This document shows, one piece after another, positions 1-8,127 of a DNA stretch of 8,127 bases; position 1 is the stretch's first letter, and every line of letters starts with the position of its first letter. Below the pieces are notes generated by a model. The model was given only the letters and a program-made list of their open reading frames with translations. It ran no database searches and had not been told where the DNA came from. The translations under genes were made by a program, and so were the position numbers. This DNA comes from a virus (taxonomy: Duplodnaviria; Heunggongvirae; Uroviricota; Caudoviricetes), in IMG/VR virus record IMGVR_UViG_2713896799_000002, positions 1 through 8,127 of that record, one strand, 5' to 3'.

Positions 1-1779
1 GAACACTCCAGAACGCGTCTTTCCAGAACGTTTCGTCACAGCCCGGAGGTCAGTAAGCGTCTCAGTCCTTCCCGTAATGACAACAACGTCCACGATAAAA
101 TGTTTCTTGACGGCTCCTTCCTGAAGATTGGCTGGCCGTCGATCACCGTATTTTCCTCCTCGGATTACCGTCGTGTGGCGCTGACGGATTATGACCGTTT
201 CCCTGAAAACGTGGACGGGGAAGGGGATGCCTTCACCCTGGCATCAAAGCGTACCACCACCTTTATGTCTTCCGGGATGACCCTGGTCGAGAGTTCACCC
301 GGGCGGGATATCACTGACACCAAATGGCGATGTGGCGGCACACATGAGGCACCCCAACAACGGGATCCTGTCCCTGTATAACCGGGAGACCGCCGTCGGT
401 GGTACTGGCCGTGTCCGCACTGTGGGGAATATTTTCAGCCGGTGATGGATAACATGACCGGTTACCGGAATAACCCTGATTTTGTGGCTGCCGGGCAGGC
501 GCCCCGCCTGATGTGTCCGCACTGCTGCGGCCTGATTGCTCCGGAACAGAAACGTGAACTGAATAACCAGGGGATCTGGCTTCGTGAAGGTGAACGGGCG
601 GCGGCGGACGGCAGTATCACCGGAACGCCACGAAATTCCCGGATTGCGTCATTCTGGATGGAGGGGCCGGCTGCGGCGTTTCAGACCTGGGAACAACTGA
701 TTTTTAAACTGCTGGCGGCAGAAGAAGAGTATGAGCGAACCGGCAGTGAAGAGACCCTGAAAGCGGTGGTGAACACCGATATCGGACGACCCTATCTGCC
801 CCGTTCAGCCACGGAACAGCGTAAAAGTGAACTGCTTGAACAGCGTGCCGAGCCGTTTCCCCGGCGATCTGTGCCGGATGGTGTGCGTTTTATTGAGGCA
901 ACGGTTGACGTACAGGGCGGTAAAAATCGCCGTTTTGTTGTGCAGATCACCGGATACGGAGAGCAGGGGGAACGCTGGATTGTTGATCGCTACAACATCC
1001 GGCATTCACTGCGCTGCAGTCCCAACGGTGAAAGTCTGCCGGTTGATCCGGCGGCATATCCGGAGGACTGGGATTTGTTGCTGACGGATGTGTTCCATAA
1101 AACATGGCCGCTGGCTTCTGATCCGGATGTGCGCATGCGTCTGATGGCCATGGCGGTGGATACGGGAGGGGAAGCCGGGGTGACAGATAACGCCTATCGT
1201 TTCTGGCGTCGTTGCCGGAGTGACGGACTGGGCAACAGGGTGTTTCTGTTCAAGGGGGATGGTCTTCGCCGTGACAGGCTGATTAACCGTACCTTCCCGG
1301 ATAATACCGGCAGAAGTGCCCGCCGTGCCAGAGCCAGTGGCGATGTCGCGCTGTGGCTGGTTCAGACGGATGCGTTTAAGGACCGTGTAAATAATGCCCT
1401 GTGGCGTGACACACCGGGGCCGAACTATATCCACTTTCCCGACTGGCTGGGGCGGTGGTTTTACGATGAGCTGACCTATGAAGAGCGCGGCAGTGACGGA
1501 AAATGGCGAAAACCGGGCAGGGGCGCTAACGAGGCGTTTGACCTGCTGGTTTATGCGGATGCGCTTGCCGTTCTGCATGGTTACGAAAAGATCCGCTGGC
1601 CCTCCGCACCGGACTGGGCACAGCGGGAAACGTGGCTCGTCTTCCCGCAGGAGCGTTCTGGTGAAACGGCATCCCCGGAACTGACGGCCGGGGCAGAAAA
1701 ACGCCGTCGCCGGAAGAAAAAACTGCGGACGGAGCGTGCGGAAGATAATCCATGGATAACATCAGGAGGCTGGTTGTGA
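1..1779 (+). CDS. Terminase large subunit (lambda gpA / GpA family); 5' end lies upstream of the window; reading frame interrupted by an in-frame TAA at 379-381
   Basis: Frame +1 is open from base 1 to 378 and again from 382 to the TGA at 1777-1779. The CPHCGE and CPHCCG motifs just downstream of the stop resemble the cysteine motif region of lambda gpA, and the gene sits directly upstream of W and portal. ORF track gives 100..381 and 442..1779 in the same frame. Confidence 0.8.
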
Positions 1780-1988
1780 GCACAGAAGAAGCCAGAGAAA
1801 TGATACAGCGGTACCGTGAAGCGGAAATGGCCGTACTGGAGGGGAAGTCTGTCACCTTCAACGGACAGCAACTGACGCTGGAAAGCCTTTCTCAGATCCG
1901 CGCCGGACGTCAGGAGTGGGAACGCAGGCTTGCCGCGATGGTGAGCCGCAGGCGGGGAAAACCGGGATTTAAACTGGCGAGGTTTTAA
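1776..1988 (+). CDS. W: Head completion / head-tail joining protein, gpW family
   Basis: About 70 aa with the C-terminal RRRGxxGF motif typical of lambda gpW. AGGAGG at 1764-1769 lies 6 nt before GTG 1776, and the GTG overlaps the terminase stop (GTGA). The track ORF starts at the in-frame ATG 1752, which is a less likely start. The stop TAA overlaps the portal ATG (TAATG). Confidence 0.8.
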   Translation: MSTEEAREMIQRYREAEMAVLEGKSVTFNGQQLTLESLSQIRAGRQEWERRLAAMVSRRRGKPGFKLARF

Positions 1989-3490
1989 TGGCAATTATTG
2001 ATGATGTGATAGGCGTGTTCTCTCCAGGCTGGAAAGCGGCCAGACTGCGTTCAAGGGCGTTAATCATGGCCTATGAGGCGGTGAAACCGACCCGGACACA
2101 TAAAGCCCGGCGTGAAAATCGATCTGCTGATCAACTCAGTAAATATGGTGCGGTTTCCCTGCGGGAGCAGGCCCGTTTTCTGGATATCAATCATGACCTG
2201 GTGATTGGTGTGTTTGACAAGCTTGAAGAGCGGGTGATTGGTGCCAGAGGAATTACTGTGGAGCCTCAGCCATTACGAAAAAACGGGGAAATGGCGGCAG
2301 AGCTGGCTGCGGATATCCGCCGGTTGTGGGCTGAATGGTCCGTGAGTCCGGATGTGACAGGGCAGTATACCCGTCCCGTGCTTGAGCGTTTACTGCTGCG
2401 GACCTGGCTGCGGGATGGTGAAGTGTTTGCGCAGATGGTCAGTGGTGCGGGAAACGGTCTGGAACGGACGGCGGGAGTGCCATTCTGGCTTGAAGCGATG
2501 GAGCCGGATTTTGTTCCCATGCACAGTGATGAATCCGCCGGGCTGAATCAGGGGGTTTTTCTTGATGAGTGGGGCAGACCGAAAAAATATCTGGTTTATA
2601 AAAATTATCCGGTCAGTGGTCGGCAGAGTGATACGAAAGAAATCGCCGCCGGAAAAATGATCCACCTGAAGTTCACTCGTCGTCTGCATCAGACGCGAGG
2701 CTCATCCATGTTATCGGGGGTGCTGATGCGGATCAGTGCCCTTAAGGAGTATGAGGATGCGGAACTGACAGCGGCGCGTATTGCTGCGGCGCTGGGACTG
2801 TATATCCGTAAAGGTGACGGACAGGACTATGAAGATCCGGGGATCAAAGAAACCGAGCGGGAAGTCCATATCACCCCGGGGATTATTTATGACGATTTGC
2901 GCAAGGGCGAGGATATCGGCATGGTCAAATCCGATCGTCCCAATCCCAACCTTGAAACTTTCCGCAACGGCCAGTTGCGTGCAGTGGCAGCTGGCAGTCG
3001 TCTGAGTTTTTCCAGTGCGGCGCGTAACTATAACGGCACCTACAGCGCCCAGCGGCAGGAGCTGGTCGAGTCCACGGATGGTTACCTGATCCTGCAGGAC
3101 TGTTTTATTGGTGCGGTAACCCGCCCGGTGTACCGGACATGGCTGAATATGGTGGTTGCGGCAGGTCTGCTGAAAATTCCGGCGGATGTGGAGATGAAGA
3201 CGCTATATAACGCGACGTATTCCGGTCCGGTGATGCCGTGGATCGACCCGGTTAAGGAGGCTGAAGCCTGGCGGATACAGATCCGGGGTGGTGCCGCGAC
3301 GGAATCCGACTGGATCCGCGCAGGCGGGCGCAACCCGGATGAGGTCAAACGTCGCCGTAAGGCTGAAACTGAGGAAAATCGCAGGCTGGGGCTGGTCTTT
3401 GATACTGACCCCGCTAACGACAAAGGAGGCAACAGTGCCGGAACTGAACAACAGCGTCAGCAGGCCACCGACAGCCAGCATGAAGAATAA
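1988..3490 (+). CDS. Phage portal protein
   Basis: Uninterrupted 500-aa ORF with the size and position expected for a portal (after terminase and W, before the protease) and an acidic C-terminal tail. Start is coupled to the W stop. Confidence 0.85.
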   Translation: MAIIDDVIGVFSPGWKAARLRSRALIMAYEAVKPTRTHKARRENRSADQLSKYGAVSLREQARFLDINHDLVIGVFDKLEERVIGARGITVEPQPLRKNGEMAAELAADIRRLWAEWSVSPDVTGQYTRPVLERLLLRTWLRDGEVFAQMVSGAGNGLERTAGVPFWLEAMEPDFVPMHSDESAGLNQGVFLDEWGRPKKYLVYKNYPVSGRQSDTKEIAAGKMIHLKFTRRLHQTRGSSMLSGVLMRISALKEYEDAELTAARIAAALGLYIRKGDGQDYEDPGIKETEREVHITPGIIYDDLRKGEDIGMVKSDRPNPNLETFRNGQLRAVAAGSRLSFSSAARNYNGTYSAQRQELVESTDGYLILQDCFIGAVTRPVYRTWLNMVVAAGLLKIPADVEMKTLYNATYSGPVMPWIDPVKEAEAWRIQIRGGAATESDWIRAGGRNPDEVKRRRKAETEENRRLGLVFDTDPANDKGGNSAGTEQQRQQATDSQHEE

Positions 3491-4499
3491 ATCCTGGTTC
3501 AGGATGCAGGCGGGTGGTCAGGGTGAGGCGGATATTTATATTTATGATGAGATTGGTTTCTGGGGCGTCACCGCGAAGCAGTTTGTCAGCGATATGAATG
3601 CCCTGGGTGATATCACCCACATTAATCTCCACATCAACTCACCGGGTGGCGATGTCTTTGAAGGCATCGCCATTTTTAATGCCCTGAAAAATCACGGTGC
3701 GGCCATTACCGTGTATGTGGATGGCGTTGCCGCCTCGATGGCATCCCTGATTGCGATGGCCGGTGACACGGTCATTATGCCGGAAAATGCCTTCATGATG
3801 ATCCATAAACCCTGGGGGATCAGCGGTGGTGATGCGGAGAAAATGCGCACTTATGCCGAACGTCTGGACAAACTTGAGTCGGTTATGGTGCCGGTATATG
3901 CGCAGAAAACCGGAAAAACCACCGATGAAATTGCCGCCATGCTGGCGGATGAGACCTGGATGTCCGGTGCCGAGTGTCTGGCACACGGATTTGCTGACCA
4001 GGTGACGCCAGCCGTTAAGGCAATGGCATGTATTCAGTCAAAACGTACAGAGGAATTTAAAAAGATGCCGGAATCCATCCGAAATATGATCACGCAGCCA
4101 CACAACAGTGCCCCGCGTGATACCACAGTGACAATCCCTGCACCGGCGGTAACAGAACCATCACCGGTACCGGCAGTGTCTGATGAGGCGACCATTCGCG
4201 CCCGCGTTATGGCTGAGCAGAAAGCCCGCATGTCAGGCATTAACGATCTGTTTGCCATGTTTGGCGGGCGCTATCAGGCGCTTCAGGCGCAGTGTGTGGC
4301 CGATCCTGACTGTTCGCTGGAAATGGCCCGCGAGCGCCTTCTGAATGAAATGGGCAAGGAGTCCTCGCCGACCAACAAAAACACACCGGCCCATATTTAT
4401 GCCGGAAACGGCAATTTTGTGGGAGACGGATCCGCCAGGCGATGCTGGCCCGTGCCGGATTTGAAAATGTCGAGAAGGATAATGTCTATAACGGGATGA
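3435..4499 (+). CDS. ClpP-like (S14) prohead protease with C-terminal scaffold-like region; probably the 5' part of a tripartite protease-scaffold-capsid gene split by a frameshift near 4428
   Basis: The N-terminal part (ADIYIYDEIGF...INSPGGDV...MASLIAMAGD) looks like a ClpP-family serine protease, followed by a Pro/Ala-rich then helical-looking region. AAGGAGG at 3424-3430 precedes GTG 3435; alternative starts are ATG 3480 (overlapping the portal stop) and the track's ATG 3288. The last ~20 aa before the stop at 4499 look like out-of-frame translation. Confidence 0.75.
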   Translation: MPELNNSVSRPPTASMKNKSWFRMQAGGQGEADIYIYDEIGFWGVTAKQFVSDMNALGDITHINLHINSPGGDVFEGIAIFNALKNHGAAITVYVDGVAASMASLIAMAGDTVIMPENAFMMIHKPWGISGGDAEKMRTYAERLDKLESVMVPVYAQKTGKTTDEIAAMLADETWMSGAECLAHGFADQVTPAVKAMACIQSKRTEEFKKMPESIRNMITQPHNSAPRDTTVTIPAPAVTEPSPVPAVSDEATIRARVMAEQKARMSGINDLFAMFGGRYQALQAQCVADPDCSLEMARERLLNEMGKESSPTNKNTPAHIYAGNGNFVGDGSARRCWPVPDLKMSRRIMSITG

Positions 4500-5458
4500 C
4501 CCTGCGTGAATGGGCTCGCATGTCACTGACCGAGCGTGGTATTGGGGTGGCCAGTTATAACCCCATGCAGATGGTCGGGCTGGCGCTGACGCACAGCACC
4601 TCTGATTTTGGCAATATTCTGCTGGATGTGTCGAACAAGGGGCTGATCCAGGGCTGGGAGGAATCAGAAGAAACCTTCCAGAAGTGGACCCGTAAGGGAC
4701 GCCTGTCAGACTTCAAAACAGCGTATCGCGTGGGGATGGGCGGTTTTGGTTCTCTGCGTCAGGTTCGTGAAGGGGCGGAGTATAAATACATCACCACCTC
4801 AGATCGCAAGGAGACCATTGCTCTGGCCACTTACGGGGAGATTTTCTCCATCACCCGCCAGGCCATTATCAATGATGACCTGAATATGCTGGTTGACGTG
4901 CCGATGAAGATGGGGCGTGCGGCGAAGGCAACGATTGGTGACCTGGTCTACAAGGTGCTGACGGATAACCCGAAACTGTCAGACGGTAAGGCGCTGTTCC
5001 ATGCCGATCACAAAAATATTGCCACCGGCGGGATCTCCGTTTCCGGACTGGATGCGGCCCGTCAGATGATGCGCCTGCAGAAAGAAGGCGATCGCGCCCT
5101 GAATATCCGCCCGGCCTTCATGCTGGTCCCTGTGGCACTGGAGACGGTGGCGAACCAGACCATCAAATCGGCCAGTGTGAAAGGGGCGGATGCAAACGCC
5201 GGTGTCATTAACCCTATCCAGAACTTTGCTGAGGTGATTGCGGAAGCGCGTCTTGATGCGGCAGATCCGAAAACCTGGTATCTTGCGGCGGCACAGGGCA
5301 CCGACACCATTGAAGTGGCCTGGCTCGATGGTGTGGACACGCCATACATTGATCAGCAGGAAGGTTTCACCACTGACGGCATTGCCACAAAAATCCGTAT
5401 TGATGCCGGAGTGGCACCACTTGACTGGCGCGGGCTGGTGCGTTCGTCGGTGGCCTGA
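4442..5458 (+). CDS. Major capsid protein segment; likely the 3' part of the protease-scaffold-capsid gene
   Basis: 338-aa ORF ending in a tandem stop TGATAA at 5456-5461 and followed by a terminator. Its frame stays open upstream of ATG 4442 back into the end of the protease ORF (reads ...GRRIRQAMLARAGFENVEK), and ATG 4442 has no good RBS. Confidence 0.75.
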   Translation: MLARAGFENVEKDNVYNGMTLREWARMSLTERGIGVASYNPMQMVGLALTHSTSDFGNILLDVSNKGLIQGWEESEETFQKWTRKGRLSDFKTAYRVGMGGFGSLRQVREGAEYKYITTSDRKETIALATYGEIFSITRQAIINDDLNMLVDVPMKMGRAAKATIGDLVYKVLTDNPKLSDGKALFHADHKNIATGGISVSGLDAARQMMRLQKEGDRALNIRPAFMLVPVALETVANQTIKSASVKGADANAGVINPIQNFAEVIAEARLDAADPKTWYLAAAQGTDTIEVAWLDGVDTPYIDQQEGFTTDGIATKIRIDAGVAPLDWRGLVRSSVA

Positions 5459-5480
5459 TAACCGCGTTATCACAATCACT

Positions 5481-5499
5481 GCCCGAAAGGGCTTTTTTT
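5481..5499 (+). terminator. Putative Rho-independent terminator or attenuator after the capsid gene
   Basis: GCCC-GAAA-GGGC hairpin (4-bp GC stem, GNRA-type loop) followed directly by a run of seven T, 23 nt after the capsid stop. Confidence 0.5.
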
Positions 5500-5510
5500 A
5501 TGCCTGAAAA

Positions 5511-5528
5511 ACAGCCCCCGGGGGCTGT
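5511..5528 (+). repeat. Perfect 18-bp palindrome ACAGCCCCCGGGGGCTGT between the terminator and the next gene's RBS
   Basis: Read directly from the sequence. It contains a CCCGGG core and sits about 3 nt upstream of GGAGAG (5531-5536) and ATG 5545. Confidence 0.45.
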
Positions 5529-5544
5529 CCGGAGAGACAGCATT

Positions 5545-5870
5545 ATGGCGAAAAATTTTGTACAGGACGGTACCACCATTGAACTGGTGAATGCCGGAGA
5601 TCAGACCATTCTGAGCGGTGCCGCGGTGGTGGTCGGCAGTATGGTGGCAGTGGCCATTACCGATATTCCTGCCGGGGATGTCGGTGACGGTTTTGCCGAA
5701 GGCGTGTTCCTGCTGCCCAAACAGTCTGCTGACGATATTCAGGCCGGTGCGGTGGTTTATCTGAAGGACGGGGCTGTGCAGCTGCTGCAGACGGTGCGGT
5801 GGCAGCGGGAGTAGCCTGGGAAAATGCTCCAGCAAACACCGCCACTGTGGCGGTAAAAATCAATGTCTGA
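5545..5870 (+). CDS. DUF2190-like small head-associated protein (putative decoration/cement-type), frameshifted near 5770-5790
   Basis: Begins MAKNFVQDGTTIELVNAG, with GGAGAG 8 nt upstream of ATG 5545. The frame +1 part stops at TAG 5812-5814, but the -1 frame from about 5775 to TGA 5868-5870 reads AAAADGAVAAGVAWENAPANTATVAVKINV, a plausible C-terminus. The track's ATG 5500 abuts the terminator T-run and lacks an RBS. Confidence 0.55.
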
Positions 5871-6144
5871 TCTGTTTGCGCGAATGTGTTGCCGGATGGA
5901 CGTGGCGACCGTTCGGATGATGGGCAAACAGGCGGAGATTAACGGCGTCGTGTATGACGTGATGCCGGAGGAAGAGTCTGCGGATATGGGGGCGCTTTCC
6001 GGCAGTCAGTTGTCACTGGTGGTGTTTTCAGCGCAGTACCGGCCGGCCCGCGATGATGTGGTTGTGTTTGACGGTCGCTCACTGGTGGTGACCCGTTATG
6101 ACACGTACAACGGTAAACCCCGGATTTTTGTCGAGCAGGAATAA
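5863..6144 (+). CDS. Head-tail attachment protein, lambda gpFII-like
   Basis: Intact 93-aa ORF. Its N-terminal half (LFARMCCRMDVATVRMMGKQAEI) parallels lambda FII as I recall it (LFDAAIARADETIRGYMGTSATI), and it sits immediately before Z. ATG overlaps the upstream stop (ATGTCTGA). Confidence 0.55.
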   Translation: MSDLFARMCCRMDVATVRMMGKQAEINGVVYDVMPEEESADMGALSGSQLSLVVFSAQYRPARDDVVVFDGRSLVVTRYDTYNGKPRIFVEQE

Positions 6145-6146
6145 GT

Positions 6147-6738
6147 ATGGCGATAAAAGGAATGGCTCAGGCCATGCGAAATCTTGATGCGCTGGATCGC
6201 CGTGCCGTTCCCGTGCGGCAGCCACCACGCTTAATCGTGTGGCGGAGTCCATCATCGCGAAAACGGCCTCTTCGGTTGCCCGTGAACTGGCGGTTCCACG
6301 CCGTCTCATCCGTGCCCGTATCCGCCTGCAACGGGCACGGGCCGACAAGGTCAACGCAAAGGTTTACATCACACCGGTAATCTGCCCGTCATAAACTGGG
6401 GAGGCCCGCGTGAGGCTTTCCCGCAGAAAGCGGCGAAAGAAAGGTGAGCGTTCGGTCACGAAAGGCGGTGGCAGTGTGCTGATTGTCGGGAAACGGCGGA
6501 TCCCGAATGCTTTTATTACCCGGCTGGAAAATGGCCGGTGGCATGTGATGCAGCGTATGCCGTGGGCATCGTCGTCCACCGGTGTTGACCGTAAAGGCAG
6601 GCCGAACCGTCTGCCGATTGAAGTGGTGACACCGACGACCGCTGGCGGAACCTTTGAGCGCGAACGTGACCGGATGTACCGGGAGAATTACCGGAACAGC
6701 CATGGCGTATCAGTTACGTTATGAAACGAAAACTGTGA
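6147..6738 (+). pseudogene. Z: Minor tail protein Z (lambda gpZ homologue), broken by at least four frameshifts
   Basis: Lambda Z-like sequence can be followed across three frames: MAIKGMAQAMRNLDALDRRAVP (frame 0), AAATTLNRVAESIIAKTASSVARELAVPRRLIRARIRLQRARADKVNAKVYITP (frame 2), GNLPVI (frame 1), EARVRLSRRKRRKKGERSVTKGGGSVLIVGKRRIPNAFITRLENGRWHVMQR... (frame 2), ...LPEQPWRISYVMKRKL (frame 1, stop TGA 6736-6738). Track ORFs 6147..6380 and 6410..6724 are fragments of it. Confidence 0.8.
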
Positions 6739-7133
6739 GGAGGTTGAAACACCGGGAAATACGGGCGGCCGTTCTGTCAGCCCTGAAGAAAATATTTTGA
6801 GCGGGGGACATGGTTTGACGGGCGACCTGCTTTTATTGACGAGCTGGAACTTCCGGCAGTGGCGGTCTACCTGACGGATGCGTCGGCAGCTGACGAGTTC
6901 GTTGATGAGGACCTGGGGGGTACTGCATATCGAGGTTTTCTCAGGCGAAAGAAACGGATTCGGCACTGGATATGTGGATGGAAGAGAAAATCCTTCCTGC
7001 GCTGGAGGCGGTTCCCGGCCTCAGTGCGTTACTGCTGAAGATGAATCTTCAGGGGTATGACTACCGCCGGGATGATGAGTTTATGATGTGGGGATCGGCA
7101 GATCTCCTGTGGAAAATTACCTACGAGATGTGA
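6735..7133 (+). pseudogene. U: Tail terminator protein U (lambda gpU homologue), broken by at least three frameshifts
   Basis: GTG 6735 overlaps the Z stop (GTGA). Lambda U-like segments: RRLKHREIRAAVLSALKKIF (frame 0, stop 6798-6800), WFDGRPAFIDELELPAVAVYLTDASAADEFVDEDLGG (frame 1), VLHIEVF (frame 2), then ...[55 protein letters not shown] ending at TGA 7131-7133 (frame 0). Track ORF 6878..7060 is a fragment. Confidence 0.75.
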
Positions 7134-7140
7134 GGACGAT

Positions 7141-7889
7141 ATGGCAATACCAAATCCTCTTGAGCCGGTGAAAGGTTCCGGCACCACACTATGGGTGTAC
7201 ACCGGCACTGGTGATGCTTATGCCAACCCGTTGTCAGACGATGAGTGGACGCGCCTGGCAAAAATAAAGGATCTGACCCCCGGCGAGATGACGGCAGAAT
7301 CCTACGATGATAACTATCTGGATGATGAGGATGCTGACTGGGTATCCACCGGGCAGGGGCAGAAATCTGCCGGTGACACCAGTTTTACGCTGGCCTGGAA
7401 GCCGGGCGAGAAAGGGCAGCGCGATTTGATCGCCTGGTTTGACAGCAGTGAGACCCGGGCCTACAAAATCCGTTTCCCGAACGGCACGGTGGATGTGTTC
7501 CGTGGCTGGGTGAGCGCCATTGGTAAAGCGGTGACCGCCAGAGAGGTGATCACCCGTACCGTGAAGATCACCAATATCGGCCGTCCGTCGCTGGCGGAAG
7601 ATCAGGGGACATCACGCCGGTCACCGGTATTACCGTGACGCCATCAACGGGCAATGTGGCAAAAGGTCAGAATATCACCCTGACTGTGGCCGTTCAGCCG
7701 GAAGGGGCGACGGATAAAACCTTCCGCGCCACGTCAGCGAATCAGAATTTCGCCACCATTACCGTGAAAGGGAACACGATCACGGTGAAAGGTGTTGCGG
7801 CCGGTAAAGCGCAGATCCCTGTGGTGACCGGAAATGGTCAGTTTGCGGCAGTGGCAGAAATTACCGTCACGGATGGTGCTGCGGGTTAA
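7141..7889 (+). CDS. V: Major tail tube protein V (lambda gpV homologue), with a frameshift at the GGGG run 7605-7608 separating the C-terminal Ig-like domain
   Basis: Residues 1-160 are highly similar to lambda V as recalled (PNPxxPVKGxGTTLWVY...[18 protein letters not shown]). GAGG sits 5 nt before ATG 7141. Track ORF 7635..7889 (...[10 protein letters not shown]...[23 protein letters not shown]) corresponds to the lambda V C-terminal Ig-like domain in the -1 frame. Confidence 0.85.
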
Positions 7890-7909
7890 GCTGAGGGAGT
7901 GATAAAAGC

Positions 7910-8127
7910 ATGTTTCTGAAAACAGAACAATTTGAATATAACGGCGTGTCCGTCACCCTTTCCGAACTGTCTGCGCTGCAGCGTATTGAGCATCTTGCCC
8001 CTCCTGAAACGGCGGGCAGAAGAGGCTGAAGCCAGCGGCAACCTGCAGGTGAGCGTGGAAGACCTTGTCAGAACCGGGGCGTTTCTGGTGGCGATGTCCC
8101 TGTGGCATAACCATCCACAGAAAACGC
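7910..8127 (+). CDS. G: Tail assembly chaperone G (lambda gpG homologue), 3' end beyond the window; frameshift at the CCCC run 7998-8001
   Basis: GAGGGAG at 7893-7899 precedes ATG 7910. MFLKTEQFEYNGVSVTLSELSALQRIEHLA (frame 2, stop 8027-8029) then LLKRRAEEAEASGNLQVSVEDLVRTGAFLVAMSLWHNHPQKT (frame 0, open to the window end) is near-collinear with lambda G as recalled. Confidence 0.75.

Follow-up and report, generated by a model that had tools for sequence, protein, structure and literature searches.

Fragmentation of tail genes Z and U on a small prophage contig of Escherichia coli IH57218 is very probably an assembly artifact

In an 8,127-nt stretch of tailed-phage DNA (the window, analyzed here over its whole length), the lambda-type tail genes Z and U are broken into short reading frames, which raises the question of whether the genes have decayed in the prophage or whether the sequence, as deposited, misrepresents them. 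By exact-protein look-up, the window corresponds in full to contig LFZJ01000007.1 (contig 7) of assembly GCA_001264215.1, from E. coli IH57218, an O2:H27 Shiga-toxin/enterotoxin hybrid (PMC4551483). A preliminary description of the window had offered two readings: loss of tail-completion functions in a prophage whose head genes are comparatively preserved, or sequence artifacts caused by low coverage or unusual homopolymer content. Based on comparisons with related prophages, and with other contigs of the same assembly, we conclude that the fragmentation is very probably a consensus artifact of the deposited assembly and not a property of the prophage.

Gene content of the window and damage to Z and U

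The window holds a lambda-like head-to-tail block, all on the plus strand, with genes for terminase, a W-like protein, portal, protease/capsid, cement, an FII-like protein, Z, U and V, and the start of G (Table 1). The source name of the FII-like gene product, "DNA breaking-rejoining protein", looks like a misnomer for head-tail joining protein.

Table 1. Features of the window (positions in nt; contig 8 is LFZJ01000008.1)
Feature	Start	End	Strand	Remarks
Terminase large subunit	1	1779	+	5' end cut by contig end; GpA_ATPase and GpA_nuclease fragments
W-like small head gene, intact	1776	1988	+	70 aa in relatives; 100% identical to L003-type prophages; no indels
Portal protein, intact	1988	3490	+	500 aa; Phage_portal_2
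ClpP-like prohead protease/major capsid fusion	3480	5458	+	659 aa in relatives; split into two ORFs
Cement/decoration gene (DUF2190, Phage_cement_2)	5545	5870	+	Frame broken by 1-nt deletion at 5783
Gifsy-2/FII-like head-tail joining gene	5863	6144	+	93 aa; frame intact, hybrid protein
Tail gene Z remnant	6147	6738	+	627 nt/208 aa when intact
Tail terminator gene U remnant	6744	7133	+	399 nt/132 aa when intact
Major tail tube gene V, C-terminal Big_2 domain	7141	7889	+	249 aa in relatives; split
Tail assembly chaperone gene G, 5' part	7910	8127	+	Gene cut by contig end
Abnormal patch	5518	6943	.	Compared with contig 8, 41 substitutions and about 20 deletion events

As reference relatives we used the L003-type prophages (L003 and L006-L012), which were found by look-up of the exact portal protein. 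The L003 type is absent from the RefSeq complete E. coli collection (portal at most 99.4% identical); the closest entry there, CP015229 (locus L001), makes a poor reference, with an identity of only 90.9% in Z/U. Phage GenBank records reach about 86% identity at best and, being too distant, are not usable to place indels.

The Z/U stretch measures 987 nt in the window as opposed to 1035 nt in all intact relatives, and it is 1035 nt long in every one of the 533 complete E. coli genomes that match there. The 48 missing nucleotides form 16 events in a MAFFT alignment (14 or 18 by other alignments), of which at least 12 are frame-shifting, so that the earlier count of at least seven frame changes holds but is an underestimate. 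By MAFFT, Z has lost 35 nt in 10 deletion events (8 frame-shifting) and U carries 5 such events (4 frame-shifting), and neither gene is a single uninterrupted ORF; at the Z-U junction, a 4-nt deletion takes part of the spacer and turns the U start codon from ATG into TTG. Many of the lesions are multi-base deletions of 2-10 nt, mostly not homopolymer miscalls. They are also strongly clustered, with 16 of the 24 indel events of the window falling in 12.6% of its sequence (binomial P=1e-9), a density of 1 per 65 bp in Z/U versus 1 per 893 bp elsewhere.

Once the deletions are filled in, Z (208 aa) and U (132 aa) both read through at full length, with zero stop codons. The repaired ORFs bear out the assignment of the two genes made in the preliminary description, since they match the Pfam families Minor_tail_Z (PF06763; profile positions 1-190 of 190, E=1.4e-53) and Phage_tail_U (PF06141; 1-130 of 130, E=1.5e-49) over their full profiles. 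As written, Z yields only fragments matching Minor_tail_Z (positions 31-74 and 89-137), and U a C-terminal fragment (6972-7133) matching Phage_tail_U 80-130. The placement of U between Z and V follows the gene order of the relatives. With gaps set aside, repaired Z/U is about 97% identical to intact orthologues at the nucleotide level, and the differences of repaired Z from L003 comprise 19 nt in synonymous and 10 in non-synonymous codons.

Could the genes be expressed as they are written? In lambda, G-T, a part of the same gene cluster, is produced by ribosomal frameshifting, which is the sole analogy for a programmed recoding of Z and U. Such recoding would have to negotiate at least 12 frame changes within 1 kb, including 5- and 10-nt deletions. 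The comparison with orthologues, which the preliminary description had proposed as a check, shows that none shares the frame structure of the window; because each gene reads as one open frame in all of them, the copy within this assembly among them, programmed frameshifting can be set aside as vanishingly improbable.

The view that the head genes are preserved stands for the W, portal and FII-like genes, in none of which did we find an indel, but not for the terminase, protease-capsid and cement genes, which are frame-broken, as are V and G. The W and portal genes differ from the L003 type by 0 substitutions and 0 indels, and the exact portal protein is present in 223 blocks of a public collection. 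In the terminase gene there are 2 substitutions relative to the L003 type (502 and 1021) and three 1-nt deletions, at about 353, 361 and 383, each in a C/G run of 4-5. These deletions fall within 33 nt (353-386) and together remove 3 nt, after which the frame recovers; two terminase fragments (1-381 and 445-1779) are annotated because the shifted stretch holds a stop codon at 379-381. The lesions lie near the contig start, where support was probably thin. The protease and the major capsid protein are encoded by a single fused gene (659-674 aa) in all relatives, and the apparent two genes in the window (ORFs 3288-4499 and 4442-5458) result solely from the loss of one G in a GGG run at 4427, with 0 substitutions relative to the L003 type and to contig 8. 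A further deletion, at 5518, lies just upstream of the cement gene. V shows 0 substitutions and 1 deletion relative to the L003 type (a G at 7604, within a GGGGG run), and G carries a 1-nt insertion of C at 7998 in a C run.

Relative to the same L003-type prophages, Z and U together show 29 substitutions and 18 gap openings (48 nt); across the approximately 6.4 kb outside the abnormal patch there are only the 2 substitutions in the terminase gene. All 6 indels outside the patch are in G/C runs of at least 3 (8.4% of bases expected), and 8 of the 13 single-base deletions are in runs of at least 3 (17.5% expected). Over the whole window, 23 deletions are seen versus 1 insertion, and none of these 24 events is shared with any of the five relatives in the alignment. 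When the deletions of the window were sought in about 28 independent relatives and 533 E. coli genomes, none was shared; the 1-nt deletion at 6209, in a CCCC run, recurs solely in L018, which lies on a sister contig from this assembly. At the site of the 10-nt deletion, viral contigs match the intact version but not the deletion junction. An exact 50-mer across three deletions was unmatched in one-genome-per-species contigs, a collection that has little power here, with its single E. coli genome.

An intact copy on a neighboring contig

The neighbor of the window's contig in GCA_001264215.1, LFZJ01000008.1 (contig 8, 14,665 bp over its whole length; loci L014 and L036), carries an L003-type copy of the same module. 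The linkage of the two contigs was confirmed by look-up: the portal ORF of L014, truncated by an error, is KOA27451.1, and the terminase fragment of the window is KOA27461.1. The called genes for protease-capsid (659 aa), cement (108 aa) and the Gifsy-2 protein (93 aa) are intact on contig 8, and so are the tail genes Z (208 aa), U (132 aa), V (249 aa), G (143 aa) and T (134 aa).

Window positions 1024-8127 align to contig 8 positions 1-7146. Outside 5501-6950 no substitution separates the two sequences, and the only differences are 13 indels of 1-2 nt (3 in the window, 10 in contig 8); inside that interval we counted 41 substitutions, together with 20 deletion events that all fall in the window. 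The stretch singled out earlier as abnormal, Z and U at 6147-7133, is where the indels cluster, but the patch is wider, spanning 5518-6943, and includes the 41 substitutions. Because these genes are intact on the neighboring contig, within one and the same assembly, we interpret the frame breaks as assembly errors.

Contig 8 has indel patches of its own, one at 274-987, covering the end of the terminase gene, W and the start of the portal gene, and one at 10039-11892, where the genes affected are those for the tape measure and the distal tail; deletions there include some of 18, 5, 4 and 3 nt, alongside many substitutions of a second prophage type, L005. The same class of artifact therefore strikes different genes on different contigs. 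We considered whether the indels of contig 8 might be real, given that a Logan contig from an unrelated data set (L037, SRR25639095_424) has the same 474-aa truncated portal ORF, and rejected this: the Logan contig is the intact sequence truncated by unrelated upstream DNA, with foreign DNA at its positions 1-28 adjoining the 5' end of the portal gene. Those 28 nt may derive from an IS1 terminal inverted repeat, which they resemble, and L037 would then be a case of real insertion into the portal gene.

The principal alternative to an artifact is that the window represents a further, defective prophage copy in which the Z/U deletions are true, possibly following patchy gene conversion with a paralogous prophage. 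Shiga-toxin E. coli commonly carry defective lambdoid prophages, in which frameshifts interrupt morphogenesis genes as they do here, and bacterial mutation is deletion-biased. In the finished E. coli genome NZ_CP015229, the annotation gives the terminase large subunit gene of L001 (854-2977) as a pseudogene containing an internal stop, and this gene may serve, as a contrast, as an example of real prophage damage; in IH57218 itself, PHAST finds 17 prophage regions, 5 of them "incomplete" (PMC4551483). Against real decay, about 16 indels per kb adjoin flanks that show 0 substitutions relative to an intact copy in the same assembly. Spontaneous substitutions in E. coli outnumber indels roughly ten to one, so that the ratio of indels to substitutions observed here is not that of neutral decay. 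Real defects of cryptic prophages are typically few per gene cluster, go together with substitutions, large deletions or IS insertions, and are shared by inheritance among related genomes; the lesions in the window, however, are private to one contig, contradicted by the neighboring contig, and seen in no independent genome, the sharing at 6209 being with a sister contig. The terminase, capsid, V and G genes are broken as well, by platform-typical homopolymer indels, and sister contigs carry the same kind of patch in other genes. The proposal that tail completion has decayed while the head genes were kept does not survive these comparisons, and we consider real decay of Z and U very unlikely.

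A site-by-site mosaic of two prophage alleles

The substitutions in the patch can be traced to a second sequence in the assembly. Pattern scans of viral contigs had led both to L014 and to L018, an L005-type paralogue on a 27,735-bp contig of the same IMG genome; L005 represents another type of prophage, found together with the L003 type in other genomes, as with L004 and L005 in one chromosome. Relative to the L003 type, nearly all substitutions in the patch are L005 alleles, and all 41 that separate it from contig 8 carry the L018 allele. The other mismatches in the patch, including that at 6918, adjoin gaps, and the sole isolated private substitution is at 6806; private substitutions therefore do not outnumber indels, whereas in a real pseudogene they would be expected to. 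Both parental haplotypes, those of contig 8 and L018, are present in the same assembly and together account for 41 of 41 substitutions.

Within the patch, the foreign and contig 8 alleles alternate almost site by site, a pattern that also argues against real decay. The window mosaic breaks into 42 runs, the foreign ones averaging 1.9 informative sites, compared with 17 runs and an average of 9.75 in the natural recombinant L001, and many foreign tracts of the window are single sites with the other allele within 10-30 nt on either side. A chimeric 33-mer across one allele switch had no match in viral or metagenome collections; both parental 33-mers at this junction occur in the viral collection. 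The mosaic extends into the FII-like gene, where four isolated L005-type nucleotides in an L003-type background produce Ala6 and Asp41 (T6A and E41D relative to contig 8). The resulting hybrid protein, WP_072131787.1 (UniRef UPI00092D4F7F), was found on LFZJ01000007.1 only, as against 223 blocks for the portal protein, and is probably an artifactual database entry. From the comparison with contig 8 it follows that the window is the contig 8 sequence sprinkled with paralogue alleles and with bases missing.

Of the 12 indels in L018, 8 fall in the corresponding cement-FII-Z-U stretch (L018 positions 9062-10743), most of them insertions as opposed to the deletions of the window; together with the shared deletion at 6209, these fit cross-talk of two copies during consensus. 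At the Ig-like (Big_2) end of V (7696-7946) the L003 and L005 types diverge strongly, with 30 differences in 250 nt, yet in the window this segment is error-free and purely L003-type. Blending is therefore local and not general to divergent segments.

A mixed case deserves consideration, in which thin coverage led to erroneous deletions but the mosaic itself is genuine, a third allele that arose by natural recombination among the prophages of the strain, at a true separate locus and with functional Z and U. Natural alleles of the module are indeed mosaics of the same two types, as in L001; the foreign sites in the window are less scattered than random (42 runs versus about 62 expected), and the foreign tracts at 6325-6331, 6372-6390 and 6415-6434 coincide with L001 tracts. 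Weighed against this are the many single-site foreign tracts closely flanked by the other allele, an extent of the mosaic that is exactly that of the indel-dense patch, and a hybrid FII-like protein and chimeric junction that occur nowhere else, and we judge the mixed case to be unlikely. It is exceedingly unlikely that contig 7 is, deletions included, a faithful record of a third locus, in which recombination with an about 10% divergent paralogue and then patchy mismatch repair generated both the mosaic and a burst of small deletions, limited to the tail-completion genes; if true, the patch would be the localized scar of an illegitimate gene conversion between prophages.

Origin of the patch and its significance

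The sequencing history of IH57218 is consistent with a consensus artifact. The reads were obtained on a PacBio RS instrument with P4/C2 chemistry, an error-prone platform, and were processed by HGAP pre-assembly and PacBioToCA correction before assembly with Celera Assembler 7.0 (PMC4551483). This resulted in 17 contigs, in which optical mapping revealed one misassembly; a polishing step goes unmentioned in the text of PMC4551483, where neither "Quiver" nor "polish" appears. The window is a small leftover contig of this unpolished assembly. Passages in PMC8812927 and PMC12007338 describe residual homopolymer errors that persist in long-read-only bacterial assemblies, with repeat regions the hardest to correct and with genes pseudogenized by such errors.

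In several respects, the errors of the window resemble the residual indels and the collapsed or chimeric repeat consensus of other unpolished PacBio CLR bacterial assemblies: (i) in platform and pipeline, deletion bias and G/C homopolymer miscalls outside the patch; (ii) in the gathering of errors, with fragmented genes, in a repeated element, here paralogous prophages; and (iii) in the presence of a redundant small contig beside a better copy. The patch differs from them in its many multi-base events and its density, given above, relative to the background, which point to allele blending or very thin support and not to ordinary residual error. Of the artifact reading put forward earlier, the core is supported by the mosaic and by the intact contig 8, but a homopolymer cause fits the clean errors outside the patch and not the mostly multi-base lesions of Z and U.

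We propose that two prophage copies contributed reads, or pre-assembled reads, to one pool at the stage of read correction or unitig consensus. Pooling would be harmless wherever the copies do not differ, and the consensus there would be correct save for occasional length errors in G/C homopolymers. Over the roughly 1.4 kb from the cement gene to U, where the copies differ by about 8-18%, the consensus would flip between alleles, and columns without majority support would be dropped, leaving deletions. The exact mixing step (read correction or unitig consensus) and the low coverage in the patch are what we infer.

Allele conflict would not account for every lesion. The idea that each deletion coincides with a paralogue difference was rejected, as only about half do; the remainder sit where both parents agree, for example AGATGATGAA at 6697 and GGCCA at 6636. 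A second component is therefore likely, either thin coverage or a burst of deletions in one read. Also to be weighed against the artifact reading, natural prophage alleles are themselves mosaics, as L001 illustrates, and the clean V segment at 7696-7946 requires either that the real second copy matches the first there or that the mixing was local. The strain could also have the L003-type module twice, contig 7 and contig 8 being different loci. Taking the evidence together, the window patch is almost certainly a chimeric, poorly supported consensus and not a biological feature.

Compared with the lambda-type Z and U genes of Stx-phage-like E. coli prophages, the window has the same order of FII-like, Z, U, V, G and T genes and differs in that neither Z nor U is a single open frame and only fragments reach Pfam thresholds. 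Z and U here are ordinary members of the lambda family, and their fragmentation belongs to a known class, long-read consensus errors in repeats, of the kind described in passages of PMC8812927 and PMC12007338. The finding has no bearing on phage biology, and its value lies in data hygiene. Scans for gene decay that rely on frame breaks will go astray on small contigs that derive from repeats in unpolished long-read assemblies, and products of this patch have entered public protein databases, WP_072131787.1 being an example. A cheap screen is to seek a second contig of the same assembly over the locus and to test whether apparently private substitutions are paralogue alleles.
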